A DNA stretch of 64,000 bases from an uncultured Gammaproteobacteria bacterium (GCA_964393545.1 CAYMUB010000059.1:4571-68570), one strand, 5' to 3'; shown: positions 43,153 to 62,900, numbered from the stretch's first letter. Notes: generated by a model from the letters alone, not told the origin. Made by a program: numbers and translations.

Positions 43153-44033
43153 AAAAAATATTAGTTTTTGGAGGTAGCGGCTTGGTTGGATCTAAGTTTA
43201 TTGATATTCACAAAACTGAATTTGAAATTAATGCTCCTGATGCAGCTGCTGTGGACATTTTAAACAAAGATCAGATATCAAAAATAGTTGAAGAATTTAA
43301 CCCGGATTCAATTGTTAATTTTGCAGCCTATACTCAAGTAGAAGAGGCAGAGAATCAAAAAGATGATCAAAATGGAATTTGCTTTCAGGTAAATGCAATT
43401 GGAGTAAAAAATATTGCAGCAGTTTCAAAAGATTTTGCCAAACACTTCATCCACATCTCTACAGAATATGTATTTGATGGCACAAAAGAAAATAGTCCAT
43501 ATGTAGAAGAAGACAAGCCAAATCCCATCAATTGGTATGGACAGACTAAATTTAAAGGTGAACAATTTGTTCTGGAAAGTGGCAGTAAGGCAGTAATTGT
43601 TAGATTATCAATGCCCTTTTCATCCCATTATAATTTAAAAAAAGATGTAGCCAGATTCTTTTTAGAGCAATTAAAATCAGGAAAACAGATTAAGGCAGTA
43701 GAAGATCAAAGAATTACACCTACTTTAGTTAATGATGTAGCAGATGGTTTAAGAGTATTACTGGAAAATCAAAGTACTGGAATGTATCATATTAGTAGCA
43801 GGGATTCTGTTAGTCCTTTAGAGTTTGTCAAAACTATTGCTGAAACTTTTCTTCTTAACTATTCCTTAATTTCATCTCTAAAATTGGATGAATTTAATAA
43901 AAACAAAAAGGCAAAATTATTAAAGTATTCCTGGTTAAACCCAACAAAATTTGAGAGAATGTTTGGAGATCAGATTCTACATACGGTCGAAGAAGGCTTG
44001 GCAATTTTCAAACAGGAGATTGACCAAATTTAG
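43149..44033 (+). CDS. rmlD: dTDP-4-dehydrorhamnose reductase
   Basis: 294-aa SDR, MKKILVFGGSGLVGS, position after rmlC. Confidence 0.75.
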   Translation: MKKILVFGGSGLVGSKFIDIHKTEFEINAPDAAAVDILNKDQISKIVEEFNPDSIVNFAAYTQVEEAENQKDDQNGICFQVNAIGVKNIAAVSKDFAKHFIHISTEYVFDGTKENSPYVEEDKPNPINWYGQTKFKGEQFVLESGSKAVIVRLSMPFSSHYNLKKDVARFFLEQLKSGKQIKAVEDQRITPTLVNDVADGLRVLLENQSTGMYHISSRDSVSPLEFVKTIAETFLLNYSLISSLKLDEFNKNKKAKLLKYSWLNPTKFERMFGDQILHTVEEGLAIFKQEIDQI

Positions 44034-47455: not shown

Positions 47456-49642
47456 ATGACAAGGTTTGGCTATGCTACACTTTATAACATGAAACTTGAA
47501 CAGCTTTCAGTTTTTTTCCCATCTTTTAATGAAGAAGGTAATATTGAACTTACAGTCAGCAAAGCAATCAAGATTTTAGAGCAATCAGGCCTGCAATATG
47601 AAATTATTATAGTTAATGATGGTTCAACAGACAAAACCGCATTTGTTGCAGAAAATTTATCTAAAAGAAACTCAAAAGTTAGAGTTATCAATCATCCTCA
47701 AAACCTGGGTTATGGAGAGGCCTTAAAGTCAGGTTTCTATAATGCCAAATATGACACTATTGTCTATACAGATGGGGATGGTCAATTTGACTTTGCTGAA
47801 GTTACTAAATTCTTAGAAAAAATACAAAATTTTGATTTGGTAATAGGCTACCGTATCAAAAGACAAGATCCTTTTCTTAGGAGATTATTTGGTAAAGGTT
47901 GGAGATTATCTTTATTAATTTTCTTTGGACTAACTTTAAAAGATGTGGATTGTGGTTTTAAAATGATTAAAAGATCAGTACTTAAGAAAATTCCTCACCT
48001 GGAATCTCAAAGAGGAGCTATGATTAATGCTGAAGTTGCAATTAAAGCTAAGAAATTTGGTTTTAAAGTAGATCAAGTTGGAGTAAACCATTATCCCCGT
48101 ATTTCAGGTAAACCTACTGGAGCAGGTGTTAGGGTGATTATTAAATCTTATCTTGACTTGCTAAGGTTGTGGTGGAAACTTAAAGATCAGAAAATGCTAT
48201 TTATAGCTTTAATCTTAATCTTAGGTTTAGCAGCTTTCTTAAGACTCTACCAAATTCCTGGATATATGACTTTTTTAGGGGATGAGGGTAGGGATGCTTT
48301 AATTATGAAGAAAATATTATCCGGTGATTTGCCTATGATTGGTCCACCCACTTCTGTTGGGAATATCTATTTAGGGCCGCTTTATTACTACATGATGTTT
48401 TTATCCATGGCTCCAACAAATTTAAACCCTATTTCTGCTGCAATTATGAATGCGCTGATTGGGATTTTAATTGTGGCCTTAGTTTATTATTTAGGAAAAA
48501 TCTGGTTTGGTAGGATTGGGGGGATGGTTGCTTCCTTTCTTTATGCTATATCACCAGTGAATATTATCTACTCCCGTTCTTCCTGGAATCCCAACCCGGC
48601 CCCCTTTTTTGCATTACTTGGAATGTTTAGTCTTTATAGGGTACACAAAACAGGTAATTTCTTGTGGCTGGTGCTAACAGGTTTTGCTTTTGCTGCAGCA
48701 GCACAAATGCACTATTTATCCTTAATACTAATTCCAATAGGAGTAATTTTGTTGATATATGAGGTCTGGGCTAGAAAAAATAGTCACATGAATTCTAAAA
48801 ATCTACCCAAGGGGATCATGTTAGGGATGATAACTTTTGCATTAGTAATGTCACCTTTAGTTATTTTTGATTTTAAACATAATTTCTTAAACTATAGAGC
48901 AATTACTGAACTCTTGTCTGGAAATGGTGCTGTTAAAGCAGCTGTTTTCTCAAATTTAGCAAGAATCCCATCTCTTTTTTCCTATAACTTAATTGGTAGA
49001 TATATGACAGGAGAGAACTATATTTTACAAATATTACTTTCCCTGCTTTTGCTCTTACCCTTTTTGTTATTGAGAACCTGGTCAATACTGGCTTTAGGAG
49101 TATGGCTTTTAGTAGGATTGTTTGGAGTCTCTTTTTACCAGCAAGATATATATGATCACTATTTAGGTTTTATGAATCCAGTCCCTTTTTTACTTTTGGG
49201 GTCTATTACTACAATTAAAATAATACCCCGTAAATTTGTAGCCGCTTTAATGATAACTTTAGTTCTCTCTTTAACTTATGTTAATTTTCAAAAAAGCCCT
49301 TTAAGGTTTCCCCCGAATAATCAATTGAAAAGAACAATTGATGTAGCAAAATTTATTATTAACGCATCACAAAATAAGGACTTTAATTTCGCATTAATTG
49401 CAAAAAGCAACTACGATTCTGCCTATCAATTTTATTTAGATAAACTTGGTCATACACCAAAACAAGTCCCATTTGATAAAACCGGTCAATTGTTTGTAGT
49501 TTGTGAAGATGAAAGTTGTGACCCAACTCATAATTCAAAATATGAAATAGTAGCTTATGGTTGGTCAAAGATAGATTGGATGAAAGAATTTGCGGGTGTT
49601 AAAATTTACAGACTTGTTCCTAATCCAACTGGTAAACCATGA
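47456..49642 (+). CDS. Bifunctional fusion: N-terminal GT2 (DPM1-like polyprenol-P-sugar synthase) + C-terminal GT-C/ArnT-like membrane transferase domain
   Basis: 728 aa; N-terminal VNDGSTD...TDGDGQ GT2 motifs; C-terminal multi-TM with MIGPPTSVGNIYLGPLYYYMMFL motif shared with the ArnT-like paralogs. Confidence 0.7.
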   Translation: MTRFGYATLYNMKLEQLSVFFPSFNEEGNIELTVSKAIKILEQSGLQYEIIIVNDGSTDKTAFVAENLSKRNSKVRVINHPQNLGYGEALKSGFYNAKYDTIVYTDGDGQFDFAEVTKFLEKIQNFDLVIGYRIKRQDPFLRRLFGKGWRLSLLIFFGLTLKDVDCGFKMIKRSVLKKIPHLESQRGAMINAEVAIKAKKFGFKVDQVGVNHYPRISGKPTGAGVRVIIKSYLDLLRLWWKLKDQKMLFIALILILGLAAFLRLYQIPGYMTFLGDEGRDALIMKKILSGDLPMIGPPTSVGNIYLGPLYYYMMFLSMAPTNLNPISAAIMNALIGILIVALVYYLGKIWFGRIGGMVASFLYAISPVNIIYSRSSWNPNPAPFFALLGMFSLYRVHKTGNFLWLVLTGFAFAAAAQMHYLSLILIPIGVILLIYEVWARKNSHMNSKNLPKGIMLGMITFALVMSPLVIFDFKHNFLNYRAITELLSGNGAVKAAVFSNLARIPSLFSYNLIGRYMTGENYILQILLSLLLLLPFLLLRTWSILALGVWLLVGLFGVSFYQQDIYDHYLGFMNPVPFLLLGSITTIKIIPRKFVAALMITLVLSLTYVNFQKSPLRFPPNNQLKRTIDVAKFIINASQNKDFNFALIAKSNYDSAYQFYLDKLGHTPKQVPFDKTGQLFVVCEDESCDPTHNSKYEIVAYGWSKIDWMKEFAGVKIYRLVPNPTGKP

Positions 49643-50376
49643 AAAAACTTTCTGTAGTTATTCCTTCATATAATGAGGCAGCTAATCTAAAAAAAGGAGT
49701 ATTAAATCAAGTAGGCGACTATTTTTTCAAAAGTAAGATAGATTATGAAGTTTTGGTGGTAGATGACGGGTCTTTGGATGAGTCAGTAAAACTGATAAAA
49801 AAGTATACTTTAAAAAATAAAAACTTTAAGTTAATCCAAAATAGCCATGGAGGAAAAGCAATAGCAGTATTAACTGGCATGGAGAAATCCAGTGGAGAAG
49901 TAGTTTTGTTTACTGACATGGATCAGGCAACTCCTATTAATCAATTAGCCAAATTCATTCCAAAGTTTGAAGAAGGATATGACATAGTTATTGGATCAAG
50001 GGATGGTAGAAAAGGAGCACCCATTATTAGGAAGTTATCTGCGTGGGGATTTTCAATCCTCCGGAGGATCATTTTAGGCTTGCCTTTTAAAGACACCCAA
50101 TGTGGTTTTAAGGCTTTTTCTAAAGCTTCAATTAACAAGATTCTTCCTGAAATTAAAAGCGAATGGGGAGTAGTTCATTTTCAAGGAGGAGCAGTGAATG
50201 CTGGATTTGATGTAGAGCTTTTATATCTGGCCAAAAAATATGGTTTTAAGATTGCAGAGATAGAGGTAGAGTGGAGTTATGTTGATACTGAAAGAGTACA
50301 AGTGGTTAAAGATGCCCTGGCAGCCATTTATGATATGTTAAGAATTAGAATAAATGATTTCTCAAATAAGTATTAG
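49639..50376 (+). CDS. GT2 family polyprenol-phosphate glycosyltransferase (soluble DPM1-like)
   Basis: 245 aa; VIPSYNE, VVDDGSLDES, DMDQATP motifs. Confidence 0.75.
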   Translation: MKKLSVVIPSYNEAANLKKGVLNQVGDYFFKSKIDYEVLVVDDGSLDESVKLIKKYTLKNKNFKLIQNSHGGKAIAVLTGMEKSSGEVVLFTDMDQATPINQLAKFIPKFEEGYDIVIGSRDGRKGAPIIRKLSAWGFSILRRIILGLPFKDTQCGFKAFSKASINKILPEIKSEWGVVHFQGGAVNAGFDVELLYLAKKYGFKIAEIEVEWSYVDTERVQVVKDALAAIYDMLRIRINDFSNKY

Positions 50377-50381
50377 GATAA

Positions 50382-51899
50382 TTGTATATAATTAAGATAG
50401 TGAAATTTGTTATCAGATATAAAACTGAATTAATTATATTCTCAGTCTTAATAGTTACTTACTTCATATTGAGGTTGCCCAATTTAACTTTGCAGCCAAT
50501 ATTTGCAGATGAGGCAATTTATATTCGTTGGGCTCAGGTAATGAGATCTGAACCTACCTTGCGGTTTTTATCTCTTTCTGATGGGAAAACACCTCTTTTT
50601 ATGTGGATAATGATTCCTTTTTTTAAGATCTTTAGTGATCCTTTATATGCAGGTAGGTTTTTATCAGTAATTTCAGGTTTCTTTACCTTACTTGGAGTAT
50701 TCTTCTTATCAAAAAAGGTATTTAATATTAGAACTGCTCTTTGGGCATCTCTTCTGTATGTAATTACGCCATACACTGTTTTCTTTGACCGCATGGCTTT
50801 GGTTGACCCAATGTTATCGGCGTTTACTATCTGGTCAATTTATTTTGCTATTTGGTTAATAAGAAGTCTCAGGTTAGATATTGCCATGATTTTGGGATAT
50901 TTATTAGGAGGAGCACTTCTGACTAAAACTCCAGCTATGATGAATATACTGGTTCTACCGATTTCACTTTTAGGTCTTAGAAAGAATAAGCAGGATAAAT
51001 ATCCTCTTTTGAGAGCTTTAACACTTTTGGCAGTAGCTGCTTTAATTGCCTTAGTAATATATAACTTGTTAAGGTTAGGTCCAGGATTTCAACAACTTTC
51101 TGCCCGGAATGCTGATTATGTTTTTTCACCCTCAGAATTAAAAGGAAGAATCCTGGATCCTTTTATTCCCCATTTTCATGATATTTCTGATTGGTTTCCT
51201 AAACTTTTTACTACTCCGGTCTTAATTTTTGTATTTGTGGGGATTTTTTACTCCTTGTTAACATTTAATAAAACAGGATTAATTATGTTAATTTGGGTGA
51301 TAGTTCCTTTTATGCTGGAAATGGCTTTTTTGAGAACATTTACAGCCCGTTATCTTTTAACCTCTATTGCTCCATTTTTAATCTTTGCGGCATTTGGTTT
51401 AACTAAAGTTTTAGAAAGAATAAGAATAAAAAATTCTCTAAAATTTACCATAGCATTGATAGTAATTTTACCGTTAGCTTTAAAGTTTGATTACCAGCTA
51501 ATTAGCAGTCCTCCGCCAACTGATTTACCAAAAGAAGAGAGAAGAGGTTATTTTGAAGAGTGGACTGCAGGTTATGGATTAAAACAAATAGGCTTATTTT
51601 TGGATGAAGAGACAAAAAAGAAAAAAGTAGTAGTAGGAACAGCTGGATTTTTTGGAACTTTACCTGATGGATTGTATATTTATCTTGATAAATCAGATAT
51701 TTCAGTTGTCGGAAGCTCAGCGACAGTTTCTGCCCAGATCAGAAAAGCTGCCCAGGAACATCCCACATATTTTGTAGGTAACAAAAAAGATTTAGAAAAT
51801 AGTATTAAGAATGTAAAATTGATCTTTGAATATCCTAAAGCCAAATCATTAGATGATTTAAAACAGGATTCAACTGTCCTTTACCAAGTTTTACCCTAG
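50382..51899 (+). CDS. GT-C glycosyltransferase, ArnT/PMT family (COG1807)
   Basis: 505 aa polytopic; first periplasmic loop carries the DE motif (IFADEAIYIRWAQ) characteristic of GT39/GT83. Confidence 0.7.
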   Translation: MYIIKIVKFVIRYKTELIIFSVLIVTYFILRLPNLTLQPIFADEAIYIRWAQVMRSEPTLRFLSLSDGKTPLFMWIMIPFFKIFSDPLYAGRFLSVISGFFTLLGVFFLSKKVFNIRTALWASLLYVITPYTVFFDRMALVDPMLSAFTIWSIYFAIWLIRSLRLDIAMILGYLLGGALLTKTPAMMNILVLPISLLGLRKNKQDKYPLLRALTLLAVAALIALVIYNLLRLGPGFQQLSARNADYVFSPSELKGRILDPFIPHFHDISDWFPKLFTTPVLIFVFVGIFYSLLTFNKTGLIMLIWVIVPFMLEMAFLRTFTARYLLTSIAPFLIFAAFGLTKVLERIRIKNSLKFTIALIVILPLALKFDYQLISSPPPTDLPKEERRGYFEEWTAGYGLKQIGLFLDEETKKKKVVVGTAGFFGTLPDGLYIYLDKSDISVVGSSATVSAQIRKAAQEHPTYFVGNKKDLENSIKNVKLIFEYPKAKSLDDLKQDSTVLYQVLP

Positions 51900-51900: not shown

Positions 51901-53598
51901 ATGCCAAAAATTTTTAGCAGAAATTTCATATTTCCTCTATGTTTAGTTATTTTAACAATTCCTCTTTTCTACTTACTAATCCGCCCTGGATTTTTTCCCA
52001 TGCAGGATGATCTGCAAGCTTTTAGAGTTCAACAGATGGTTAAGTGTTTGAAGGATTTTCAAATTCCCTGCAGGTGGATTCCTGATATGGGTTATCAATA
52101 TGGATATCCTCAATTTAACTTTTATCCGCCCAGTGTTTTTTATATTGGTGGACTATTAAATTTAATAGGTATTCAGGTAATTGATGCAGTAAAGATATTA
52201 TTTATTTTAGGATTTATATTATCGGCTTTAACAATGTTTCTTTTTTTAAAAGATTTGCTAGGGAAGTGGCCTGCTTTTGTAGGTGCGATGCTCTATAGCA
52301 TTGTTCCATATAAGGCTACTGAAGTGTATGTTAGAGGGTCCTTGTCAGAGTTTTGGGCTTTTGTATTTTTTCCGCTTATTTTTTGGTCTAGCTTACAACT
52401 AGTTAAAACCGGAAAAATAAAGTATATTGCCTGGCTTGCCTTTTCAGTTGGATTACTGTTGTTGACTCATAATCTGATGTCATTTATATTTTTACCAATC
52501 TTTGGAGTATGGGTAATTACTTTAGCGTTAGTTTGGAGAAAATGGCAAGAGCTGCCAAAAATAATTATCGCTAGTTTACTGGGCTTAGGGGTAGCTGCCT
52601 TTTTTACTATCCCTGTTATTTTTGAGAATAAATATGCTCATATAGAAACTTTAACTAGTGGATATTTTGACTATCGTCAACACTTTGTAGATTTAAAGCA
52701 ATTATTTTTATCTAATCATTTTGGGTATGGGTCTTCCTACTTAGGACCCAATGATGATCTTTCCTTGTCAACAGGAATAGTGCAATGGATACTTGGTTTT
52801 TTAGCAGTAATACTTGTCTTGTTTAATTTTAAAAAAGATAAAAAAATAACTCTCATTACTTTAATACTTGCGATAAGCGTCTTAGGAGTTTTGTTTTTAA
52901 TGCATCAAAAATCATCATTTATCTGGGAGAAACTACCTGGCTTAAATTTATTGCAATTTCCCTGGAGGTTTTTATCAGATAGCACTTTTCTTTTATCTAT
53001 CTTGGATGCTATTGCTATCTATAAAATAAACAGTTTCAGTAAGAATTTAGCTATCGGAGTGGGGGTAATTTCCATAGTTACTCTATTCATCCTGCACGGA
53101 TTTTTCTTTCAGCCAAAATCATGGCTTAATATTTCTGATCAAGATAAATTTTCTGGAGAGTCTTGGGAAAAGCAATTAACTATCAGCATTTTTGATTATT
53201 TACCAATTTATGCCAAATTTCCGCCAAACAAAAAAGCTCCTGAACAACCAGAAACTTTGGAAGGAAAGGTTGAATTTATAAACTACCAAAAGTACAGTGA
53301 TTCTCAAACAGGAGAAATAAAGGTAGAGAAAAATTCTACCTTAAGATTGCCTTTATTTGATTTTCCAGGCATGGAAGTTACAGTAGATGGTGAAAAAGTA
53401 GCCCATTGGCATGATGATTGCAGAGAACAAGAATATTGTCTGGGACTGATTACCTTCATGGTAAATGAGGGCAGTCACAAAATTAAAGCCGCGCTAAAAG
53501 ATACGCCAGTACGATTACTTAGTAATATAATCAGTATTATAAGTATTTCTATTGTGGGAATACTTTTTTTTAAAAAACATGAGAAATATACTAGTTAA
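51901..53598 (+). CDS. Tandem paralog 1 of a polytopic membrane protein family (putative GT-C-like)
   Basis: 565 aa; conserved FQIPCRWIPDMGY...QFPWRFLSD motifs shared with the next three genes. Confidence 0.6.
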   Translation: MPKIFSRNFIFPLCLVILTIPLFYLLIRPGFFPMQDDLQAFRVQQMVKCLKDFQIPCRWIPDMGYQYGYPQFNFYPPSVFYIGGLLNLIGIQVIDAVKILFILGFILSALTMFLFLKDLLGKWPAFVGAMLYSIVPYKATEVYVRGSLSEFWAFVFFPLIFWSSLQLVKTGKIKYIAWLAFSVGLLLLTHNLMSFIFLPIFGVWVITLALVWRKWQELPKIIIASLLGLGVAAFFTIPVIFENKYAHIETLTSGYFDYRQHFVDLKQLFLSNHFGYGSSYLGPNDDLSLSTGIVQWILGFLAVILVLFNFKKDKKITLITLILAISVLGVLFLMHQKSSFIWEKLPGLNLLQFPWRFLSDSTFLLSILDAIAIYKINSFSKNLAIGVGVISIVTLFILHGFFFQPKSWLNISDQDKFSGESWEKQLTISIFDYLPIYAKFPPNKKAPEQPETLEGKVEFINYQKYSDSQTGEIKVEKNSTLRLPLFDFPGMEVTVDGEKVAHWHDDCREQEYCLGLITFMVNEGSHKIKAALKDTPVRLLSNIISIISISIVGILFFKKHEKYTS

Positions 53599-55207
53599 AA
53601 ACTTTCCTATTTTAATTATTCTGGGATTATCGATATTAATCGTCTGGCCTTTATTTTTACACGGCTATTTTTCTCATCATGATGATTTACAGGTCATGAG
53701 AATTTTTGAGATGAGGAAGTGTTTTTTTGATTTGCAGATTCCCTGCCGATGGGTGCCGGATATGGGTTTTGGCAATGGTTTTCCTTTATTTAATTACTAT
53801 GGAGTATTCCCTTATTATATTGGGGCGGTCATAAGTTACTTACTGGGATTTATTGGGGCAGCCAAGGCTCTATTTTTTATCCCTTTGGTTTTCGGAGGTA
53901 TTTCAATGTATTTTCTAGCAAGAGAATTAGCAGGAAAATGGGTTGGTTTAACAGCAGGAGCCTTATATTTATTTGCTCCTTACAGATCTTTAGATACTTA
54001 TGTCAGAGGGGCAGTTTCTGAAAGTTTTTCTTTGGCTATAATTCCTTTAGTTTTTTATTTTGGTTTAAAACTGGCTAGAGAAAAAACAACATATAATTTT
54101 ACTTTATTTTCTTTAACATTAGGAGCTTTTTTAATCACCCACAACATTATGGATATGTTATTTGCTCCTTTATTGGTTCTTTTTTTGATTTATATAAAGA
54201 TCATAGAAAAATCAAAAAATATGAAAAACTTAATCTTTGGTACAATCTTAGGATTTGGTTTATCGGCCTTTTTTTTAATCCCTGCTTTCCTGGAAAAAAA
54301 CTTAATTCAAACAGAAGCTTTAACCAGATTTGATTTAGATTTTAGGGTGCATTTTGTAACAGTTAAACAATTATTCTTAGATAGATTTTGGGGTTATGGA
54401 GCATCAATTTTAGGACCGTTTGATACCATCTCATTTCAGATAGGTTGGCCTCACTGGTGGTTGGTTGTTGTTGGATTCTTGCTAGTTCTAAAAAATAAAA
54501 AACTATTGCCCTTAATATTTGTCTTTTTAGTTTCAATTTTTATGGCTCACAATAAATCTGCTTTTGTTTGGGAAAAAATTGGCATACTAAGATATACCCA
54601 ATTTCCCTGGAGATTTTTATCTATAGCGATATTTTCTTCAAGTCTGATTGGAGGACTTGTGATAACCAGTGTTAAAAAAGAATGGCAAAAGTACCCGGCC
54701 ATCTTAATTGTTATTTTAACTGTGTTGTTAAATTATAGTTACTTTAAACCGGATAAATTTTATTTTGATTTAACAGATGAAAAAAAATTATCAGGAATTT
54801 TATGGGATGATCAAAGAAGAGCAGCTATTTTAGATTATTTGCCAAAGGAAGCTTATGAACCAAAAGAATCTGCACCTGATAAGCCACTGGTGATTGAGGG
54901 GCAGTCTGATATTAGAAACTTTGTGGTCAGATCAAACTCTTGGAGATTCGATGTTGATGTAAAAAAAGCTGCTAAGATTGAGATACCAGTTTTTGATTTT
55001 CCTAATTGGGAGGTTTTTGTAAATGGGAAAAAAGTATCCCACAATAAGGATAATTTACTAAAGAGAATTCAGTTTAACTTGGAGCAAGGGAACTATCAAG
55101 TAACTGGTAAGTTTAAAGATACCTTTATAAGACAAATATCTAATTTATTAACACTATTTTCTTTGGTGGGATTACTGTTATATGTTAAAAAACTTAAAAA
55201 AATCTAA
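53552..55207 (+). CDS. Tandem paralog 2 of the same membrane protein family
   Basis: 551 aa; LQIPCRWVPDMGFGNGFPLFNYY, QFPWRFLS; start may be internal Met ~53579. Confidence 0.6.
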   Translation: MWEYFFLKNMRNILVKNFPILIILGLSILIVWPLFLHGYFSHHDDLQVMRIFEMRKCFFDLQIPCRWVPDMGFGNGFPLFNYYGVFPYYIGAVISYLLGFIGAAKALFFIPLVFGGISMYFLARELAGKWVGLTAGALYLFAPYRSLDTYVRGAVSESFSLAIIPLVFYFGLKLAREKTTYNFTLFSLTLGAFLITHNIMDMLFAPLLVLFLIYIKIIEKSKNMKNLIFGTILGFGLSAFFLIPAFLEKNLIQTEALTRFDLDFRVHFVTVKQLFLDRFWGYGASILGPFDTISFQIGWPHWWLVVVGFLLVLKNKKLLPLIFVFLVSIFMAHNKSAFVWEKIGILRYTQFPWRFLSIAIFSSSLIGGLVITSVKKEWQKYPAILIVILTVLLNYSYFKPDKFYFDLTDEKKLSGILWDDQRRAAILDYLPKEAYEPKESAPDKPLVIEGQSDIRNFVVRSNSWRFDVDVKKAAKIEIPVFDFPNWEVFVNGKKVSHNKDNLLKRIQFNLEQGNYQVTGKFKDTFIRQISNLLTLFSLVGLLLYVKKLKKI

Positions 55208-56858
55208 AAAACTTCTGGGATTTTTGATAGCCGGAATTTTAATAATCCCAGCAGTCTGGGCCTTATTTGTGCCGGGATTTTATGGAGCTTCAGATGATAT
55301 TCATATTGGCTGGTTGTTTGAATTTCACAAAACTTTAATGATGGGACAGATTCCTCCCAGATTTGTACCTGATTTAAGTTTTGGTTTTGGTTATCCTTTA
55401 TTTAATTTTGTTTTTCCATTACCCTTTTATATTGCTGAAATTATTCATCTTTTTTTAGGATTTAATTTAGTTGACAGTATCAAAGCTTTATTTTTTCTGA
55501 CCATCCCTTTATCAGGTTTATTTATGTATTTTTTGCTTCGTGAGTACTCGGGTAGATCATTTAGTCTGGCAGGGGCAGTTTTATATATTTATACCCCATA
55601 TAGATCAGTAGACTTATATATCAGAGGGGCAATAGGGGAGATAGTAAGTTTTGTTTTTCTCCCCCTGATATTATTATCAGTTATTAAGCTATCTAAAACT
55701 AGAGGTTTAAAATGGGTAGGGATAGGTGCTATCTCGCTTGCTTCCCTAGTCTTGTCGCACAATATAACAGGATACATGTTTTTTCCTTTTGTAGCTTTAT
55801 TATTTTTATTCCAAACTTTTTTTATCTCTGCGAAAAAACAGTTTATAACTAACTTTTTCCTAATGATTTTTTTAGGACTTTTAATAAGTATTTATTTTTG
55901 GCTACCGGCAATAGTGGATAGCAACTTAATGAAATATGATACTGTTTTCAATTTTGTAGATCACTTTCCTACCATTTCCCAATTGATAACTCCTTATTGG
56001 GGTTATGGAGCATCTGTACCAGGACCCTATGATGGAATGTCTTTTTTCCTGGGAATAACTAATTTACTGGTCTTGGGAATTGGAATAATTTCTATTTTCT
56101 TGTTTTGGAAAAAAATAGAAAAAGAAAAAAGGATTATTTTTATCTGGTCTTTAATATGTATAAGCTGGTCTATGCTCTTAATGAATTATCGGTCTATCTT
56201 TATATGGTCAATTGTCCCAATGTTGCCATATTTTCAGTTTCCCTGGAGATTTTTGATATTAACTACCTTTGCTATACCAATCCTGATAATAATTCTAGAA
56301 AAACTGCCTTTTAATAAATTTATCCCGGCTGTTTTGATTGTTTTAACACTTGTCACATCTGGAAGTTATTTTAGACCACAAGATTTTTTAGGTAGAAAGG
56401 ATGACTATTTTCTTAACCGGTATATCCCAAGTCCTGTGGCTAGTGATGAATATAAAAAAACGCAGGAAGAATATTTAAGATTACCCATAGGAACTCAGGT
56501 TAGGCCAGATAAAATTTACCCCAGAGTCACAAACAATACTAATATTAAAGAGGTTGTAAGTACTGATGATCTTAATGCTCAGATAAAGGTGGAATCAGAT
56601 AAAGGAGCAGTCATAAGTTATAATAAATATTCTTTCCCAGGCTGGGAAGTAAGAATTGATAATCAGGTTGTAGAACACAAAACAGGATCACCATTCGGCC
56701 AGTTAACTTTCTTTGTTCCTTCAGGCCAACATATGATTGAAGTATCCTTTAAAGAAGGCACATTTAAGAAAATACTTGACGCTATATCTTTGGTTGCCTT
56801 TTTAGTATCATTAAGAATGGCATGGACTCGATTAAAAAAATATGGCCCTTCCTCGTAG
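55182..56858 (+). CDS. Tandem paralog 3 of the same membrane protein family
   Basis: 558 aa; QIPPRFVPDLSFGFGYPLFNF, FQFPWRFLIL. Confidence 0.6.
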   Translation: MLKNLKKSKKLLGFLIAGILIIPAVWALFVPGFYGASDDIHIGWLFEFHKTLMMGQIPPRFVPDLSFGFGYPLFNFVFPLPFYIAEIIHLFLGFNLVDSIKALFFLTIPLSGLFMYFLLREYSGRSFSLAGAVLYIYTPYRSVDLYIRGAIGEIVSFVFLPLILLSVIKLSKTRGLKWVGIGAISLASLVLSHNITGYMFFPFVALLFLFQTFFISAKKQFITNFFLMIFLGLLISIYFWLPAIVDSNLMKYDTVFNFVDHFPTISQLITPYWGYGASVPGPYDGMSFFLGITNLLVLGIGIISIFLFWKKIEKEKRIIFIWSLICISWSMLLMNYRSIFIWSIVPMLPYFQFPWRFLILTTFAIPILIIILEKLPFNKFIPAVLIVLTLVTSGSYFRPQDFLGRKDDYFLNRYIPSPVASDEYKKTQEEYLRLPIGTQVRPDKIYPRVTNNTNIKEVVSTDDLNAQIKVESDKGAVISYNKYSFPGWEVRIDNQVVEHKTGSPFGQLTFFVPSGQHMIEVSFKEGTFKKILDAISLVAFLVSLRMAWTRLKKYGPSS

Positions 56859-58525
56859 GTTTAGCTTTGTCTATTAGTTTGCTCTGGCCTATTTTTGTTG
56901 CCCCAACCTTCACCCGCCACGACGATGTGGAAGTGATCAGATTATATGAAATGGACCGCTGTTTTAAAGATCATCAGATCCCCTGTCGCTGGGTTCCAGA
57001 CTTGGGTGGAATGTATGGGTATCCGCTTTTTAACTACTATGCCCCTTTACCCTATTACTTCGGAGAACTTATCTATTTTATAACTCATAGTTTAATAATT
57101 TCTTCAAAAGTCATGTTTATTGTCTCTTTTTTGGGTGCTTATATTTTTATGTATCTTTTAGCAAGAAAATTCTGGGGTAGTTTGGGTGGCAGTTTATCTG
57201 CCATTTTTTATAGCTTTGCTCCCTATCATGCTTTGGATTTTTATGTCAGAGGAGCAATGGGTGAGATGTGGGGATTAATGTTTTTCCCGGCAGTTTTTTG
57301 GGCAGCGGCTAAGCTTAATGAAGAACTGAAAATTTCTAATTTACTACTACTAGCAATTTTCCTGGCAGCTCTTTTTACCTCACATAATATTTCTGCTATG
57401 GTTTTTTTACCCTTTTATCTAATATGGAATTTAGTATTTTTCTGCAAAAGCAGAAGCAAAAAATTTCTTGTCTATGGGGTTGGGGCACTTATTTTAGGAA
57501 CTTTACTTTCAGCGTTCTATCTTTTTCCGGCCAACTTTGAAAAAGAGTTAGTTCATGTTGAAACAACAGTCATAGGATACTTTTCCTACACAGAACATTT
57601 TAAAGGACTTAGAAGACTTCTTTTGGATAGGGCTTGGGCTTATGGGCCTTCTGTTAGAGAAGTGCCTGGAGGGGAGCGGGATTTATTGTCTTATCAAATT
57701 GGATGGGTTCATCTGTTAGGTTTAGTTTTGGCATTAGTTTCAGTTAAGACCCTTTGGAATAAAAATAGACCACTGAGTTGGGTGATAATCTTTTGCTCCG
57801 CCTCAGTTGTATTCCTTGTTTTTATGATCCATCCCAGATCGGTATTTGTTTGGGGATTAATTGAACCTTTAAAATATTTACAGTTCCCCTGGAGGTTATT
57901 ACAACCTTTAATATTTTTTATCTCACTGGCAGCAGGAAGTATATTTGTTTGGGTAAGAAAGAAGAAGCAAATATGGTTGGTACTGGTTTTCTTGGTTGTG
58001 GTATTTAATTTCTCTTATTTTAAGCCTGAAAAGTTCATTCAAACTAGTGATGAAAAACTTTTAACAGGTAGTGAGTGGGAAAGACAAATAATGCGCTCCA
58101 TCTTTGATTTTTTGCCTAAATCTGCTAAAGAACCTCCTGCCCAGCTTGCTAAAGAAAGGTATGAGGTGTTAACAGGGAATAGTAAAGTCTATGATTTCAA
58201 AGAGGGAACAAACTGGTTAAATTTTAAAACAGAAACACAAACACATACTATCATCCGCTTATCCCAGTATTATTTTCCTGATTGGAAGATTCTTGTTGAC
58301 GGAAAGGAAGTAAAATTCGATTATAAAAACAATAGCTTGGGACTTATGACAATTCTTTTGGGAACTGGTAACCATTTTGTAGAAGCTAGATTATATGATA
58401 CTCCGATTAGGTCTATCTCTAATACGATAACCACTATGGCAATTTCTTTGACTTTAATTATATTTATACTGCATTTTGCAAAAGTAAGAAAATGGGTGGG
58501 ATATTATAGAAAGAGAATAAACTAA
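56822..58525 (+). CDS. Tandem paralog 4 of the same membrane protein family
   Basis: 567 aa; QIPCRWVPDLGGMYGYPLFNYY, LQFPWRLLQ. Confidence 0.6.
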   Translation: MDSIKKIWPFLVGLALSISLLWPIFVAPTFTRHDDVEVIRLYEMDRCFKDHQIPCRWVPDLGGMYGYPLFNYYAPLPYYFGELIYFITHSLIISSKVMFIVSFLGAYIFMYLLARKFWGSLGGSLSAIFYSFAPYHALDFYVRGAMGEMWGLMFFPAVFWAAAKLNEELKISNLLLLAIFLAALFTSHNISAMVFLPFYLIWNLVFFCKSRSKKFLVYGVGALILGTLLSAFYLFPANFEKELVHVETTVIGYFSYTEHFKGLRRLLLDRAWAYGPSVREVPGGERDLLSYQIGWVHLLGLVLALVSVKTLWNKNRPLSWVIIFCSASVVFLVFMIHPRSVFVWGLIEPLKYLQFPWRLLQPLIFFISLAAGSIFVWVRKKKQIWLVLVFLVVVFNFSYFKPEKFIQTSDEKLLTGSEWERQIMRSIFDFLPKSAKEPPAQLAKERYEVLTGNSKVYDFKEGTNWLNFKTETQTHTIIRLSQYYFPDWKILVDGKEVKFDYKNNSLGLMTILLGTGNHFVEARLYDTPIRSISNTITTMAISLTLIIFILHFAKVRKWVGYYRKRIN

Positions 58526-58529: not shown

Positions 58530-59993
58530 ATGGTGGAAAGTGTTGAGCAAATAGACCCAACAGAAGGATTAACAGCGGAGGTTGTAAAGAAAAGGGTTGT
58601 TAAAGGTGCAGCCATACTTACGGCTAGAACCTTTTTGATGCAGGCTATCACTTTTGGGTCTACCGCACTTCTAACCCTGTTCTTAAGTCCTTCTCAGTAT
58701 GGAGTCTTCTTTTTAGTTTCAGCGGTTATTAATTTTTTGGCCTACTTTTCTGATATAGGTTTTGCAGCAGCTTTAATACAAAAAAAAGAACAATTAACAC
58801 AAATAGAATTAAAAACTGTATTTACTACTCAACAGATTTTAATACTATTGCTGATTATTTTAGTTTATATGACGACTCCAATAATCAAAAATATTTACCA
58901 TTTAAATGATGAAGCAATTTACCTACTTTGGGCCCTGACATTCTCACTATTGTTATCTTCATTAAAGGTTATTCCTTCTGTTTTAATGGAAAGAAAATTA
59001 GAATTTAATAAGTTAATTGTTCCTCAACTAGTAGAGACTCTTGTTTTTAATGTTGTGGCAGTATTTCTTGCCTGGAAGGATTTTGGGATAACTAGCTTTA
59101 CTATTGCTGTTTTAGTTAGAGGTTTTGTTGGTTTGCTATCAACCTATCTTATTCAACCATGGATGCCTGCATTAGCTTTTTCAAAAGATTCATTAAAATC
59201 TATTCTTAAGTTTGGAGTTCCTTATCAAATGAATACCTTGCTGGCAATGGTTAAGGATGACGGGATGACAATATTTTTAGGAAGCACATTAGGTCCAAAC
59301 GGGATAGGGCTTTTGGCTTGGGCTCAAAAATGGGCTTTTGCTCCCTTAAGATTTTTCATGGATCAGATTATAAAAGTAACTTTTCCGGCTTTTGCAAGAT
59401 TGCAAGATAATAAAAAAGAATTATCTCAAGCTGTAACTAAGTCTATTCTTTATATTTGTTTATTTGTTTTTCCATCCCTGGTAATGTTAGTACTACTTGT
59501 TCCCTCATTAATAGAAATAATTCCTAAATATAACAAATGGAATCCTGCTCTTTCAGCCCTAATAATTTTAACTGCCAGTTCAGCTTTAGCTGCCATTACA
59601 ACGCCAATTACCAATACTTTAAATGCCATAGGTAAGATTTATGTCACTTTTAAACTAATGATTATGTGGACTGTTCTAACTTGGGCTTTTGTACCAATAC
59701 TAGCGATAAATTATGGAGTGACTGGGGCTGCTTTAGGTTTTTCTCTAGTTGGTTTAAGTTCTATTATTGCTTTGATTATTGCTTTAAAATATATAGAAAT
59801 TGATTATTTAAAGATTTTAGGCAAACCTTTAATTACAGCTGTGATAGTAGGGTTAGTAGTGTTTGTAATTAAGTTATTAATACCCATTTCTTTGCTGCAG
59901 GTAATCGTCATGATAGTTGGGGGGTTAATAACTTTTTTTACATTGGTAGTTTTATTGGAACCTCAGATTTTAAATTATCTGAAAAAAAGATGA
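58530..59993 (+). CDS. Polysaccharide/oligosaccharide flippase, Wzx-like (MOP superfamily)
   Basis: 487 aa, ~12-14 TM, N-terminal region typical of polysaccharide biosynthesis protein family (ILTARTFLMQAITFGSTALLTLFLSPSQYG). Confidence 0.65.
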   Translation: MVESVEQIDPTEGLTAEVVKKRVVKGAAILTARTFLMQAITFGSTALLTLFLSPSQYGVFFLVSAVINFLAYFSDIGFAAALIQKKEQLTQIELKTVFTTQQILILLLIILVYMTTPIIKNIYHLNDEAIYLLWALTFSLLLSSLKVIPSVLMERKLEFNKLIVPQLVETLVFNVVAVFLAWKDFGITSFTIAVLVRGFVGLLSTYLIQPWMPALAFSKDSLKSILKFGVPYQMNTLLAMVKDDGMTIFLGSTLGPNGIGLLAWAQKWAFAPLRFFMDQIIKVTFPAFARLQDNKKELSQAVTKSILYICLFVFPSLVMLVLLVPSLIEIIPKYNKWNPALSALIILTASSALAAITTPITNTLNAIGKIYVTFKLMIMWTVLTWAFVPILAINYGVTGAALGFSLVGLSSIIALIIALKYIEIDYLKILGKPLITAVIVGLVVFVIKLLIPISLLQVIVMIVGGLITFFTLVVLLEPQILNYLKKR

Positions 59994-62900
59994 TTAAAAT
60001 CTTTTATTGTCTAATTTTTTTAGTGTTATCCTTTTTCCTTGACTCAGCAGTCCTTGCTCAAAGTAATAGTTTTGTTTCAGTTGTTAATCCAATCCGTGGA
60101 TCTGATTTTTGGTCTTTAAAAGACCAGGATCCTCAAACTGCCTTTTTTGGGCAAAGGGATATTCTAAAAAAACAAAACATAGAAGCTACCTGGTTAATCA
60201 GATTTGATGCTTTAGCAGATAACAAAATAATTGATTCCTTAAAGACTACGAGTGACGAGAAAGGACTGTTTTTAGAAGTAACCCCTATTTGGACTAAGGA
60301 AGCAGGAGTTGAATACCAAATTTCTGAAAGTTGGCATTCAGCCAAGAGTGCGTTTTTAACTGGATATGAGCCATATCAAAGAGAAAAATTGATTGATGCA
60401 GCATTTGAAAAATTCAAAAACATTTTTGGGAGTTACCCTAAGTCTGTTGGAGCATGGTGGATTGATAGCTATTCGCTTTCCTATATGCACAAGAAATATG
60501 AAATTATTGATGCACTAATTGTGGCTGACCAATATACAACAGATAATTATCAGATCTGGGGTCAGTATTTCTCTACTCCTTATTATCCATCTAGAGTGAA
60601 TGCTTTACATCCAGCACAAACTTTAGAAAATAAACTTCCTGTTGTTATCACTCAATGGGCTGCCAGAGATCCGGTTAATGGTTACGGAAATGGAGTCTTG
60701 GAAAGCACCTACTCGGTTCAAGCCAACGACTACCTGGACTATCACGATCTTGATACAAATTATTTTGAGAAATTAATAGATATTTATACCAAACAAAAAT
60801 TTAACAAGTTTGGCCATATTGTAGTGGGACTGGAGAATTCATATGAGTGGGGAAAGTATGCGAAAGAATATGAAAATCAAATTAAAAAGCTGGCCCAAAA
60901 ACGGAAAAATAACGAGATTTTTATAAGTTCACTGGCAAACTTTGCCAATTGGTATAAGCAAAACTTTCCTGATCTTTCTCCTGCTCAAATAATTATGGCT
61001 GATGATCCATTAGGGTCGGAGAAGAAGGTGGTCTGGTTTATGAACCGATTTTACCGGGCAGGCTGGTTTTATAATGAAGCAGGTTCTGTTTTTAGAGATA
61101 TCAGGCAATATATTGACGGAAAAGAAGAACTATGTTTGCAAAAAAGATGTGATGAGGTTAATTTTGCGACATCAGCTACCAGGGTTTTGGATGAAGTTTC
61201 ATTTGGACACAAATGGCTAATTGATGAGGGGAAGATATCAGATTTTAGATTATCTAAAGAGGGAGAAAAATACCTAATTACCTACGAAAATGAAGCAGAG
61301 AACAGCCGGAAGATAGAGTTTATGCCAAGAGATATTGGTGTTGACGGGAAGATCTTATCAATTGACACAACAATCCTGGACGCTATTAAAAGCGACACTC
61401 AAAATTTTAAAAAGAAAAATAACTTTGAAAAGAGTGGCTTTAATTGGAATATAGGAAGCGTTGTTTCAAAAATAACTAGATTTCTGCTATTTATTTTGAT
61501 TGTATGTTTAGTACCTGGCTTTGTTTTAACAAACAAATTATTCATGGAAGAGAAAATTCTTAAACGGGTTTTTATAGCAACTATTACAGGGTTTGTATTA
61601 ATAACTATTACTTTCTATGTAGCAAGTTTATTGAATTTTAGATTCTTGTTGTTTTTATATGTCTTAGTAAACTTATTTCTATTTTTTAAACTTAAACTCA
61701 CATCTACTTTTAAGATTACTATTCCCGATTTAAAAATAGTAGATCTAGTTATAGGATTGGTAATTATTATTGGTACTATCTTTCAAAATATCCCCAGCTT
61801 CAAAAATGGTTTAGTATTTTCCTTTGGCATGGGTTTTTGGGGGCCCAATACACATGATGGGGTCTGGCATATTAGTTTGATTAATCAGTTAGTTAAGGCG
61901 TTACCCGTACAAAATCCTATTTTTGCAGACAGTATTTTAAAAAATTACCACTTTTTCTATGATTTAATGATTGCGCAAGCGGTTTTTTTCACCCAAATAC
62001 CAGTTATAGATCTTGTTTTCAGGTTCTACCCAATCGTTTTTTCTTTGCTTTTAGGTATAGGCACTTATTACTTAACAAAATCCAAGTTAGCAGCTATTTT
62101 TAGCTTGTACTTTGTATATTTTGCCGGTAGCTTTGGCTGGATTGTTGACTTTATTAAACAAAAGACTTTTGCTGGAGAATCAGCTTTTTGGGCAAATCAA
62201 TCAATCTCCTTTAATCTAAATCCTCCTTTTGCAATTTCTCTTTTAATTATCATCGCCCTTCTTCTAATGCTAAATTCTAAAAAAATAAAATCTTTTAGAG
62301 GAATTATTATTATGGTGATTTTGGCGGGCAGCTTAATTGGGTTTAAATCTTATGCGGCAGTATTATTTTTCATTCCTCTTGCTATACTGGCTTTAATTAA
62401 TGTACTTAAAAAAGATTTTACGCTTCTGAGCGTTTTGGTACTTTCATTTATATTATCTCTTGTATTTTTCATTTCTAATTTTCAAACAAATCAACAGTTA
62501 GTAATCTTTTCTCCGTTCTGGCTAATACATTCCATGGTTGATTCCATGGATAGAGTGGGATGGGTGCGTTTGTCTCAAGCCCGGGTAGCTGGAATTGAGA
62601 CTAATAATTGGTTTAAATTTATTATTGCAGAAACAGTAGGGCTATTAATATTTATAGCAGGCAATCTGGGTATAAGGATTTTGGCTTTCTCTTCACTGTG
62701 GAAAATTAAGGGTATCTTAAAAGATAACAAGCAGTTGTTTTTATTTATTTTTTCTGTTGTTTCATTCCTAATTCCCATTCTTTTTATTCAGTCAGGAAAT
62801 CCCTGGAATACGATTCAGTTTTCTTATTATGGTTTGTATATAGCAGCAATAGTTGGAGGGGGGGTAGCTGCCTCATTTATTATTAAATTACCTAAAATTG

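Follow-up and report, generated by a model that had tools for sequence, protein, structure and literature searches.

Four consecutive genes located on the + strand between positions 51901 and 58525 of the window (the whole 64-kb stretch of DNA analyzed here) encode membrane proteins that share the GT-C fold and a conserved acidic motif. Our data support their assignment to one subfamily of GT-C-fold membrane glycosyltransferases, of a short YfhO/PF10131-type form, as anciently diverged paralogs. The host genome of the array is Daviesbacteria, in the candidate phyla radiation (CPR). The best overall explanation, which we consider likely, is that these diverged GT-C paralogs act on the outer side of the membrane and are nonredundant. 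Their probable role is in the building or decoration of a cell-surface glycan. The family is an uncharacterized branch of a known enzyme class and not a new kind of system.

Organization and divergence of the four paralogs

Paralog 1 (51901..53598, + strand) is a 565-aa ORF starting with ATG and coding for a short YfhO/PF10131-like GT-C-fold membrane glycosyltransferase. Paralog 2 (53552..55207, +) has the same architecture and motifs and comprises 551 aa from the TTG codon at 53552, or 542 aa from the ATG at 53579. Paralog 3 (55182..56858, +; 558 aa), the most divergent copy, and paralog 4 (56822..58525, +; 567 aa) both start with ATG. With the longest-ORF starts, the genes overlap by 47, 26, and 37 nt at junctions 1/2, 2/3, and 3/4, respectively. 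An earlier note on this DNA had described four consecutive same-strand genes of 551–567 aa overlapping by 26–47 nt, and our ORF list gives exactly these coordinates. The overlap at junction 1/2 depends on the start codon and is 20 nt with the ATG at 53579, the start chosen by an independent gene call (locus L003). The junctions of a second genome (locus L001) overlap too, by 17, 29, and 34 nt.

The four proteins are 29–39% identical in pairwise comparisons. Even the most divergent pair gives a BLASTP E value of 1e-72 across ~560 residues, indicating homology far beyond chance. At the DNA level, repeats are confined to the motif-coding stretches (62–79% identity, spacing of 1609–1675 nt). The duplication is therefore old, and neither a recent event nor an assembly artefact. 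In a six-frame translation of the whole 64 kb, the motifs QIP[CP]R[WF][VI]PD, QFPWR, G[YF]P[LQ]FN[FY], Y[VI]RG[AS], and DD[LIV][QHE] each occur four times, once per paralog gene. The shared GYPLFN(F/Y)Y-type motif of the earlier note was thus recovered once per gene and nowhere else, and the hydropathy profiles of the four copies resemble each other, as it had also reported. Two other signatures, presented there as common to the four copies, hold for three of them. IPCRW(V/I)PD(L/M)G is found in paralogs 1 (QIPCRWIPD), 2 (QIPCRWVPD), and 4 (QIPCRWVPDLG) but is replaced by IPPRFVPDLS in paralog 3, which is also devoid of both EL1 cysteines. QFPWRFL, present for instance in paralogs 1 and 2, reads QFPWRLL in paralog 4. 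The most telling conserved feature, an invariant Asp-Asp pair nine residues after TM1 (D36-D37 in paralog 1), was absent from that note.

Family, fold, and predicted topology

Copy 1 matches the Pfam YfhO model (PF09586) with 42.3 bits for a cut-off of 28.5, over profile positions 70–390 of 835; copies 2–4 give no match to this model at E ≤ 1. For PF10131 (cut-off 26.4 bits), the scores are 64.9 for copy 2, 26.3 for copy 1, 21.8 for copy 4, and 19.6 for copy 3, with an alignment limited to model positions 1–311 of 621, over the TM core. Copies 3 and 4 are under every Pfam cut-off. These results agree with the earlier guess of a YfhO-like protein or a DUF, copy 1 passing the YfhO model and copy 2 PF10131. 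Public annotations of the orthologs carry the PF10131 name (PTPS_related, "6-pyruvoyl-tetrahydropterin synthase related"). PF10131 belongs to the GT-C clan CL0111 and is listed as a family of unknown function, so that membership carries no functional information (PMC7801869). The HMM search, which the earlier note had proposed, assigns families of the GT-C clan and no transporter family. Among the transporter HMMs, none matches the four copies significantly, the sole transporter-type line being MmpA for copy 3 (E 0.16). No PDB entry was detectable by sequence for the subfamily.

An AlphaFold (AF2) model of copy 1 (pLDDT 93.2, pTM 0.93) contains 12 TM helices and a β-sandwich. Its best 30 Foldseek matches are all GT-C enzymes, with probabilities of 0.98–1.0, and include STT3, AglB, PglB, Emb, ArnT, AftD, ALG12, Pmt4, and DPY19. 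Transporters come up only at probabilities of 0.18 or less, with 0.05–0.18 and TM-scores of ~0.11–0.14 for MFS structures. Together with the YfhO and PF10131 matches, these fold similarities bear out the initial reading of the genes as GT-C-type glycosyltransferases. Two known GT-C families were tried and rejected. The likeness to STT3, PglB, and AglB (GT66) is at the fold level only, with no WWD in any paralog and no PF02516 match. For GT39, neither the PMT nor the PMT_2 HMM reaches its cut-off, and MIR is matched by no copy.

The proteins most likely consist of a short cytoplasmic N-terminus, TM1, an outward loop of ~65 residues, ten TM helices, an outward β-sandwich of ~130 residues, and a final TM anchor, the outward side being deduced from indirect lines of evidence. 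In paralog 1, the β-sandwich spans residues 451–532 and precedes the C-terminal TM anchor. The first predicted outward loop holds the invariant Asp-Asp and the QIPxRxxPD motif. D36 is present in 130/130 sequences and D37 in at least 90%, and the pair is found in all four paralogs. The DD is a candidate catalytic site: GT-C enzymes are typified by an acidic pair in their first outer loop, and the equivalent pair proved essential in GtlB (PMC5836110).

The topology is based on the secondary structure of the model and on three indirect arguments. First, the density of K+R is 0.345 in the predicted inner loops versus 0.092 in the outer loops. Second, C49 and C57 are both present in 100% of the copy-1, -2, and -4 orthologs and both missing in 100% of the copy-3 orthologs, and C507 and C513 co-occur in copy-1 orthologs only; such paired gain and loss is the pattern of disulfide bonds. 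Third, in five family representatives, a GT2 domain of the cytoplasmic type immediately precedes TM1. The conserved motifs, which map to predicted outward-facing and not to cytoplasmic loops, thus most likely face the outside of the cell, in agreement with the periplasmic location that had been put forward for checking. Sixty of the 67 invariant residues are in the outer loops or the outer halves of the TM helices.

Conservation of the array and its neighborhood

The subfamily is very large and has no characterized close member. A profile search retrieved 17,876 clusters at 50% identity (E ≤ 0.001), including 5,614 with E ≤ 1e-30. Of the 83 loci fetched, 58 have the order 1-2-3(-4), every locus being taken from a separate GTDB species representative among Daviesbacteria, Woesebacteria, and other Microgenomates, although these array statistics are biased since 80 loci were picked as best matches to copy 1. 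Arrays with one, two, three, or four copies were all seen, copy 2 or copy 4 being often absent; the fourth copy occurs in 16/83 loci, apparently the Daviesbacteria-like ones. Orthologs are 50–70% identical (55–85% for copy 3), well above the identity between paralogs. The earlier note had suggested a phylogeny of the paralogs; in an NJ tree, clades agree with array position in 49/49, 52/54 (copy 2 clade, position 2), and 48/58 cases. The array is old. Paralog-specific conserved sites are concentrated in the outer loops (5/65 and 4/61 positions) compared with the TM helices (2/254). Since the catalytic motif is present in all copies and each copy has persisted as its own ortholog group at an unchanged place in the order, the four are most likely nonredundant, each presumably responsible for a different linkage, acceptor, or step. 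Such retention is consistent with the idea of the earlier note that the copies differ in the sugar or linkage added or in the acceptor served.

In the window, GT2 is represented by three genes, alongside a GtrA domain, a Wzx flippase, and further GT-C proteins; about ten GT-C-like proteins are found in ~38 kb. The genes described below are all on the + strand. About 8 kb upstream of the array, RmlA, RmlB, RmlC, and RmlD (40521..44033; PF00483, PF16363, PF00908, and PF04321) direct dTDP-L-rhamnose synthesis. As they are near the array in just 5–7 of 52 loci with full flanks, this linkage is loose. They are followed by a GT2 domain fused to a GtrA/DPMS-type TM domain (45055..46272; PF00535, 72.5 bits; PF04138, 66 bits), a GtrA-like candidate flippase module, and by a 728-aa fusion of GT2 (PF00535, 98.9 bits, residues 18–179) and PMT_2-type GT-C membrane domains (47456..49642; PF13231, 42.5 bits, residues 308–469), present in 23/52 loci. 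The next gene encodes a 245-aa GT2 without TM helices (49639..50376; PF00535, 96.7 bits), which is upstream of the array in 31/52 loci and within 10 kb in 34/52. A 505-aa PMT_2-type GT-C protein (50382..51899; PF13231, 49.4 bits; PF02366, 32.8 bits) abuts the array upstream; its gene occupies the upstream side in 38/52 loci and is within 10 kb in 40/52. The array is immediately followed by a Wzx/MOP-family flippase gene (58530..59993; PF13440, 174.8 bits; NF007773, 151 bits for a cut-off of 273), the most consistently linked neighbor (within 10 kb in 44/52 loci). Further downstream, a 1133-aa protein (59990..63391) couples a GT-C-fold membrane domain to a secreted domain of deacetylase/glycoside-hydrolase fold and to a globular domain at the C-terminus, which resembles that of AglB.

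The 245-aa GT2 resembles polyprenyl-phosphate sugar synthases and is a candidate for making a lipid-linked donor. In NCBIfam it comes closest to PgfS, ArnC, EpsD, and dolichyl-phosphate hexose transferase, in each case far under the equivalog cut-off. It is 39% identical over 244 aa to the GT2 domain of P0152, which is joined there to a copy-1-like GT-C module and has PgfS, ArnC, and AglJ as its best NCBIfam matches. The GT2 fused in P0126, the closest copy-1-like protein, is nearer to a rhamnosyltransferase than to a polyprenyl-phosphate sugar synthase, so that the donor could be something other than a polyprenyl-phosphate sugar. By analogy with the CsbB/GtcA/YfhO, GtrABC, and GacIJKL transmembrane glycosylation systems, we infer a three-step scheme. 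A cytoplasmic GT2 of the locus would load a sugar onto polyprenyl phosphate. A flippase, for which the adjacent Wzx and the GtrA-domain protein are the candidates, would carry the lipid-linked sugar to the outer face. Outside the cytoplasm, each GT-C paralog would then use its DD site to attach the sugar to an acceptor, which could be a surface protein or a glycopolymer of the wall or membrane. Against this explanation weigh the lack of an initiating phosphoglycosyl transferase, Wzy, and polysaccharide ABC exporter in the window, the low NCBIfam scores of the GT2 neighbors, and the Pfam scores of copies 3 and 4.

Instead of being independent enzymes, the paralogs might function as subunits of a single hetero-oligomeric GT-C machine, as in EmbA-EmbB or Pmt1-Pmt2, that builds up a glycan step by step at the outer face. 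The only departure of this hypothesis from the best explanation, with which it overlaps, is an obligate physical association. Besides the gene order fixed across many species and the overlapping frames, which are compatible with translational coupling, it accommodates the existence of two-unit proteins: P0121 (1093 aa), a natural fusion of copy-2-like and copy-3-like units in array order found in three independent assemblies, and P0122. The even number of TM helices per unit, with N- and C-termini both inside, makes head-to-tail fusion topologically possible. However, the occurrence of arrays of one to four copies, often missing copy 2 or 4, means that no fixed stoichiometry is required and, with the DD kept in all four, none looks like a noncatalytic scaffold. 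We consider obligate association possible, though rather unlikely. A bolder proposal, which we rate as clearly unlikely, is that copies 1→2→3 (→4 where present) are physically coupled in a hetero-oligomeric GT-C "assembly line" and that their gene order reflects the sequence in which they act or assemble. A surface polymer would then be built largely or entirely at the outer side of the membrane from polyprenyl-phosphate sugars, a strategy like that of mycobacterial arabinan in ultra-small CPR bacteria. The copy 2–copy 3 fusion, the overlapping frames, and the ten or so GT-C-like proteins are compatible with this proposal, as is the fact that no cytoplasmic backbone glycosyltransferase, initiating phosphoglycosyl transferase, Wzy, or polysaccharide ABC exporter was found in the 64-kb window.

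The paralogs could instead be PMT-like protein O-glycosyltransferases modifying secreted or surface proteins (S-layer, pili, or Ser/Thr-rich regions), with every copy dedicated to its own protein or sequence context. The array is flanked by PMT_2-type genes, polysaccharide backbone machinery is missing from the window, and PgfS, to which the 245-aa GT2 comes closest in NCBIfam, is the GT2 of a streptococcal protein-glycosylation system (PMC12041528). Against this, copy 1 reaches 22.6 bits with the PMT_2 HMM (cut-off 26.1), the other copies do not match it, and no copy has a MIR domain. The paralogs, which are bacterial, are 9–11% identical to Pmt1, Pmt2, and Pmt4 (GT39), and their acidic motif is DD, whereas PMTs carry a DE motif. 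The fold match to Pmt4 is barely above those to STT3, AftD, PglB, and AftA; such near-equal scores do not discriminate the type of acceptor. A dedicated role in protein glycosylation is in our view unlikely.

We find it quite improbable that one or more copies, instead of transferring single sugars, act as an oligosaccharyltransferase, ligase, or polymerase on polyprenyl-diphosphate-linked oligosaccharides flipped by the adjacent Wzx. The consistent linkage of Wzx would fit, as would the presence of STT3B, PglB, and AglB among the best fold matches, the lack of a Wzy or WaaL homologue in the window, and the location of a GT2-fused relative (P0143) in a cluster of the classical type with Wzx, GT2, and GT4 genes. 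Yet the WWDxG motif is in no paralog, PF02516 matches none, and such a role would better suit the 1133-aa neighbor, whose C-terminal domain is AglB-like. Moreover, Wzx-type proteins, e.g., GacK, are also proposed to flip polyprenyl-phosphate monosaccharides (PMC8035078). Finally, it is very improbable that the copies are redundant or interchangeable units for surface variation (serotype switching or phase variation), as tandem surface-glycan paralogs can be in antigenic variation, or transporters or flippases, as once suggested for YfhO and C55-P-sugar intermediates (PMC5836110): the DNA has no long near-identical stretches on which recombination or gene conversion could act, the junctions show no slippage-prone repeat signature, separate ortholog groups in fixed order across species are the opposite of a fast-switching locus, and transporter folds are matched only at probabilities ≤ 0.18.

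Relationship to known systems and significance

YfhO of Bacillus subtilis, Staphylococcus aureus, and Listeria monocytogenes is the GT-C enzyme of the CsbB/GtcA/YfhO system of teichoic-acid GlcNAc-ylation. Like YfhO, the paralogs have a polytopic core and, ahead of a terminal TM, a predicted extracellular domain that separates the final two TM helices (PMC5836110); in a relative, the C-terminal β-sandwich matches the last part of the YfhO profile (positions 756–822 of 835). As in three-component systems, GT2 and flippase genes are nearby (PMC8035078). However, the paralogs are ~560 aa long, compared with 811 aa for the full-length YfhO in locus L084, and their outer domain counts ~133 aa versus 389 aa in B. 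subtilis YfhO (PMC5836110). The DD of loop 1 is invariant here, whereas no conserved acidic motif is identifiable for YfhO (PMC5836110). There are four ordered paralogs here and one gene in the YfhO system. The window showed no teichoic-acid genes.

In mycobacteria, embC-embA-embB lie in tandem, and the EmbA-EmbB heterodimer (PDB 7bvf) is among the Foldseek matches. As is proposed here for the four copies, the Emb and Aft enzymes comprise several paralogous GT-C proteins forming different linkages from a polyprenyl-phosphate sugar; their product is arabinan, assembled extracellularly with decaprenyl-phosphate arabinose as the donor, and they bear extracellular carbohydrate-binding-type domains (PMC11127046). 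In contrast to the paralogs, Emb proteins are about 1050–1090 aa long with large C-terminal domains. They have no detectable sequence relationship to the paralogs and come from a different phylum with different sugars, and DPA pathway genes are not found at the paralog locus. The association of a GT2, a flippase (GtrA-type, or Wzx-type as GacK is proposed to be), and a GT-C transferase is shared with GtrABC, GacIJKL, and CsdAB-type systems (PMC8035078), and nearby dTDP-rhamnose genes with streptococcal rhamnose-polysaccharide loci. These systems have one GT-C per GT2, whereas four ordered paralogs and at least five further GT-C-like proteins are found here in ~38 kb; rhamnan backbone glycosyltransferases and an ABC exporter were not found in the window.

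The mechanism class is well known, and our result mostly confirms the expected annotation. Contigs carrying orthologs reach 1.15 Mb, and CPR genomes are ~1 Mb. CPR bacteria are generally considered to live in attachment to other cells, and surface glycans are the likeliest mediators of attachment and of recognition by phages. The 6.6 kb spent on four GT-C paralogs predicted to face outward, among the ten or so GT-C-like proteins, point to a large and so far uncharacterized investment in surface glycans. The invariant DD and the outer-loop motifs are concrete targets for mutagenesis and could inform on YfhO-type enzymes, in which the catalytic motif is not identifiable (PMC5836110).

The four genes and their boundaries

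The ORF listing returned the four same-strand genes of 551–567 aa, overlapping by 26–47 nt, that the earlier note had described. They are paralogs 1 (51901–53598, +, 565 aa), 2 (53552–55207, +, 551 aa, TTG start), 3 (55182–56858, +, 558 aa), and 4 (56822–58525, +, 567 aa), with successive overlaps of 47, 26, and 37 nt. An independent gene call on the same DNA (locus L003) starts copy 2 at the ATG at 53579, which brings its overlap with copy 1 down to 20 nt. In a second genome (locus L001), the overlaps are 17, 29, and 34 nt. Promoter-like sites were no commoner than in shuffled sequence (71 vs 73.8), and the terminator-like sites detected are weak and located within genes. These scans being uninformative, it is the spacing and overlap of the genes that suggest their co-transcription.

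In public annotation, paralog 1 (P0001; L003 1804–3402) is called as a protein of 532 aa that starts at Met34 and lacks TM1; an acidic DD motif would then fall at residues 3–4. Full-length orthologs (99–100 % coverage) and a pLDDT of 97 at residues 11–30 favor the 565-aa form starting at 51901. The public annotation is therefore probably truncated N-terminally, within the start of paralog 1 (51901–52002).

The four copies can be aligned end to end, with pairwise identities of 29–39 % (BLASTP E = 1e-72 for the least similar pair). When the whole window was translated in all six frames, QIP[CP]R[WF][VI]PD, QFPWR, G[YF]P[LQ]FN[FY], Y[VI]RG[AS], and DD[LIV][QHE] were each found exactly four times, once per paralog. 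The motifs first reported as shared are thus present in all four copies in these relaxed forms; the stricter forms are each found in three copies only, copy 3 carrying the variant IPPRFVPDLS and copy 4 QFPWRLL. DNA repeats across the array are confined to the motif-coding stretches (62–79 % identity, 1609–1675 nt spacing). This rules out recent duplication, gene conversion, and assembly artefact: the duplication that gave rise to the four copies is old.

Family, fold, and membrane topology

In the HMM search that had been proposed, copy 1 passed the cut-off of YfhO (PF09586; 42.3 bits vs 28.5) and copy 2 that of PF10131 (64.9 bits vs 26.4), a member of the GT-C clan whose function is listed as unknown (PMC7801869). 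With PF10131, copies 1, 3, and 4 scored 26.3, 19.6, and 21.8 bits against the same cut-off of 26.4. NCBIfam assigned a family to none of the four. The Pfam matches are confined to the TM core (positions 70–390 of 835 in YfhO and 1–311 of 621 in PF10131), half of each profile being unmatched by the four copies. These are also shorter proteins than YfhO of B. subtilis, with an outer domain of 133 aa as against 389 aa. They fall between the two models and are typical of neither. Orthologs bear the public names "YfhO family protein," "GT39 family protein," and "6-pyruvoyl-tetrahydropterin synthase-related protein."

Profile searches of PDB sequences with two family alignments, A1 and A2 (the latter comprising 130 sequences: copy-1 orthologs, copy-3 orthologs, and the four paralogs), gave no relevant match, and the tie to solved GT-C structures comes from fold comparison only. 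The AlphaFold model of copy 1 (pLDDT 93.2, pTM 0.93) has 12 TM helices, with loops of 65 residues following TM1 and 61 residues following TM7; a beta-sandwich (residues 451–532) precedes the final TM helix (536–557). Together with the YfhO and PF10131 matches, this fold backs the reading of the four copies as GT-C-type glycosyltransferases; all the defining features of the superfamily that could be tested are present. A transporter, the opposite outcome envisaged in the earlier note, is unsupported by sequence and fold. Membership of the PMT or STT3 families was rejected, the corresponding HMMs, signature domains, and motifs all being absent.

Nine residues past TM1 lies the pair D36-D37 (copy 1 numbering), of which D36 is invariant in A2 (130/130 sequences) and D37 present in at least 90 %. 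An acidic pair of this type and position defines GT-C enzymes, and its equivalent is essential in GtlB (PMC5836110; PMC11127046). Matching this motif in both respects, D36-D37 is the candidate catalytic motif.

We assigned the loops by applying an N-in topology to the helices of the copy 1 model. The density of K+R is then 0.345 in inner loops vs 0.092 in outer loops, and 60 of the 67 residues invariant among the four paralogs lie in outer loops or outer helix halves, which places the conserved motifs on the outward side, as had been predicted. C49 and C57 are found in 100 % of copy-1, -2, and -4 orthologs and in 0 % of copy-3 orthologs; the pair C507 and C513 is fixed (100 %) in the copy-1 group only. 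Gain or loss of cysteines in pairs is a sequence signature of disulfide bonds, whose formation is extracytoplasmic. Finally, five family representatives of 821–832 aa (P0126, P0139, P0143, P0152, and P0211) carry a GT2 domain immediately N-terminal of TM1; domains of this kind are cytoplasmic, with nucleotide sugars as their substrates. From these three independent, indirect lines (charge bias, paired cysteines, and GT2 fusions), we infer that loop 1, with its DD motif, is extracytoplasmic.

Distribution, order, and fusions of the array

The close homologs carry the names Candidatus Daviesbacteria, Microgenomates group, or Patescibacteria; P0001, P0271, and P0391 are public entries for the window's own proteins, on a contig of 122 kb. 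The four-paralog profile matched 17,876 clusters (50 % identity) at E ≤ 0.001 and 5,614 at E ≤ 1e-30. With one genome scanned per species, 561 relatives were found, of which the best 80 loci belong to Daviesbacteria, Woesebacteria, Shapirobacteria, Amesbacteria, Blackburnbacteria, and other Microgenomates. Many third-party annotated MAGs titled "uncultured Gammaproteobacteria" or "Pseudomonadales" (L007, L009, L011, L014–L020, and many others) have this Microgenomates-type locus, with the same synteny and 40–70 % identity; the titles of these records are probably wrong.

Arrays were counted by hmmsearch on the ORFs of 83 loci, the best 80 and three others, a sample selected as best matches to copy 1 and biased accordingly. 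Four tandem copies are present in 16 of these loci, three in 42, two in 12, and one in 13. The order copy1-like, copy2-like, copy3-like, and copy4-like is nearly always kept, and identity to the window counterpart is 50–70 % vs about 30–35 % between paralogs. At L001, the entire locus is syntenic with the window (orthologs 56–68 % identical). In the phylogeny suggested in the earlier note, the clades of a midpoint-rooted NJ tree track array position: position 1 for 49/49 proteins of the copy-1 clade, position 2 for 52/54 of the copy-2 clade, and position 3 for 48 of the 58 in the copy-3 clade. Nine other copy-3-clade proteins stand at position 2, apparently in arrays without copy 2. The largest copy-4-only clade is a mixture of distant single-copy relatives. 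Group-specific conserved sites occupy 5/65 and 4/61 positions of the outer loops vs 2/254 of the TM helices, small numbers that fit a divergence in substrate-facing regions.

Several relatives join units in one polypeptide. In P0121 (1093 aa), a copy2-like unit (44 % identity) comes first and a copy3-like unit (47 %) second, as in the array; three independent assemblies contain this protein, among them that with the 144,918-bp contig of L043 (ORF 11565–14912). P0122 (1116 aa) also has two units. The representatives P0131 and P0153 (1670 and 3329 aa) show 4 and 6 profile-matched stretches and may be merged gene calls. Every GT2 fusion partner is a copy1-like module (35–55 % identity). In P0152, the GT2 domain shares 39 % identity with the window's 245-aa GT2 across 244 aa and has PgfS, ArnC, and AglJ as best NCBIfam matches, and that of P0126 looks rhamnosyltransferase-like instead; the fused GT2 domains are thus of more than one type. 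P0143 is encoded in a classical cluster (L084) that also contains Wzx, several GT2 genes, a GT4, and an 811-aa full-length YfhO. Analogous to the five fusions is the 728-aa product of 47456–49642 (+), which combines a polyprenyl-phosphate sugar synthase-like GT2 and a PMT_2-type GT-C and would unite donor maker and donor user in one protein.

Genomic setting and proposed role

Upstream of the array, the window encodes a PMT_2-type GT-C (26126–27670, −), a DUF2079 membrane protein (37683–39161), RmlA, RmlB, RmlC, and RmlD (40521–44033, +), a sugar dehydratase/epimerase (44058–45071), a GT2 fused to a GtrA domain (45055–46272, +), a weak PMT_2 match (46269–47438, −), the GT2–PMT_2 fusion, the 245-aa GT2 (49639–50376, +), and a PMT_2 GT-C (50382–51899, +). 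After the four paralogs (51901–58525, +) come Wzx (58530–59993, +) and a 1133-aa protein (59990–63391, +). About ten GT-C-like proteins are thus encoded in about 38 kb (those starting at 26126, 37683, 46269, 47456, 50382, and 59990, and the four paralogs). Neither an initiating phosphoglycosyl transferase nor a GT4, Wzy, or polysaccharide ABC exporter turned up among window ORFs of at least 120 aa. When all window ORFs were searched with hmmsearch, the only match besides the four paralogs was a remote one, to the GT-C portion of the fusion starting at 47456. ORFs 20992–22803 (−), 24575–26122 (+), and 27697–29226 (+) were rejected as distant family members (hhalign probabilities 0.4, 0.2, and 28 %); these proteins of 603, 515, and 509 aa, with no Pfam match, adjoin a PMT_2 gene and an epimerase.

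Of 52 loci with full flanks, 44 have Wzx within 10 kb of the array, 40 have the PMT_2 gene (38 of them on the upstream side), 34 have the 245-aa GT2 (31 upstream), 20 have the 1133-aa protein, and only 5–7 have the Rml genes.

Elsewhere in the window, a YcaO-domain protein (PF02624, 121 bits) precedes two small Pfam-less ORFs (36452–36991 and 37013–37480); this region (35227–37480, −) may represent an azoline/RiPP-type system, or a YcaO system of another kind, in a CPR genome. An F420-0:gamma-glutamyl ligase family protein (22859–23623, +; PF01996, 111.6 bits) may be surprising for a reduced CPR genome, in a family that includes non-F420 homologs too. At 29635–33545 (−), a Lamin-tail-domain protein (PF00932) adjoins an M23 peptidase with a PcsB-type coiled coil, FtsE, and FtsX, an arrangement suggestive of a cell-division hydrolase module. 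The window also encodes a class I lysyl-tRNA synthetase (PF01921; 12528–14093, +) and a membrane H+-pyrophosphatase (PF03030, 877 bits; 3266–5272, +).

In the proposed scheme, a GT2 would make a polyprenyl-phosphate sugar, a flippase would carry it outward, and outward-facing GT-C enzymes would transfer it. It is rather unlikely that the four paralogs form a physical complex, and a little less likely again that the acceptor is a protein rather than a polymer. Use of diphosphate-linked oligosaccharides by some copy is improbable. Searches of the literature on CPR/Microgenomates with YfhO or GT-C, and on PF10131, turned up no paper describing such arrays, and an archaeal membrane-protein survey does not cover the family (PMC5898192). 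Paralogous GT-C arrays are already an established theme. The four paralogs would most likely act as non-redundant transferases differing in linkage, acceptor, or step, the closest analogy being the mycobacterial set of several GT-C arabinosyltransferases (PMC11127046).
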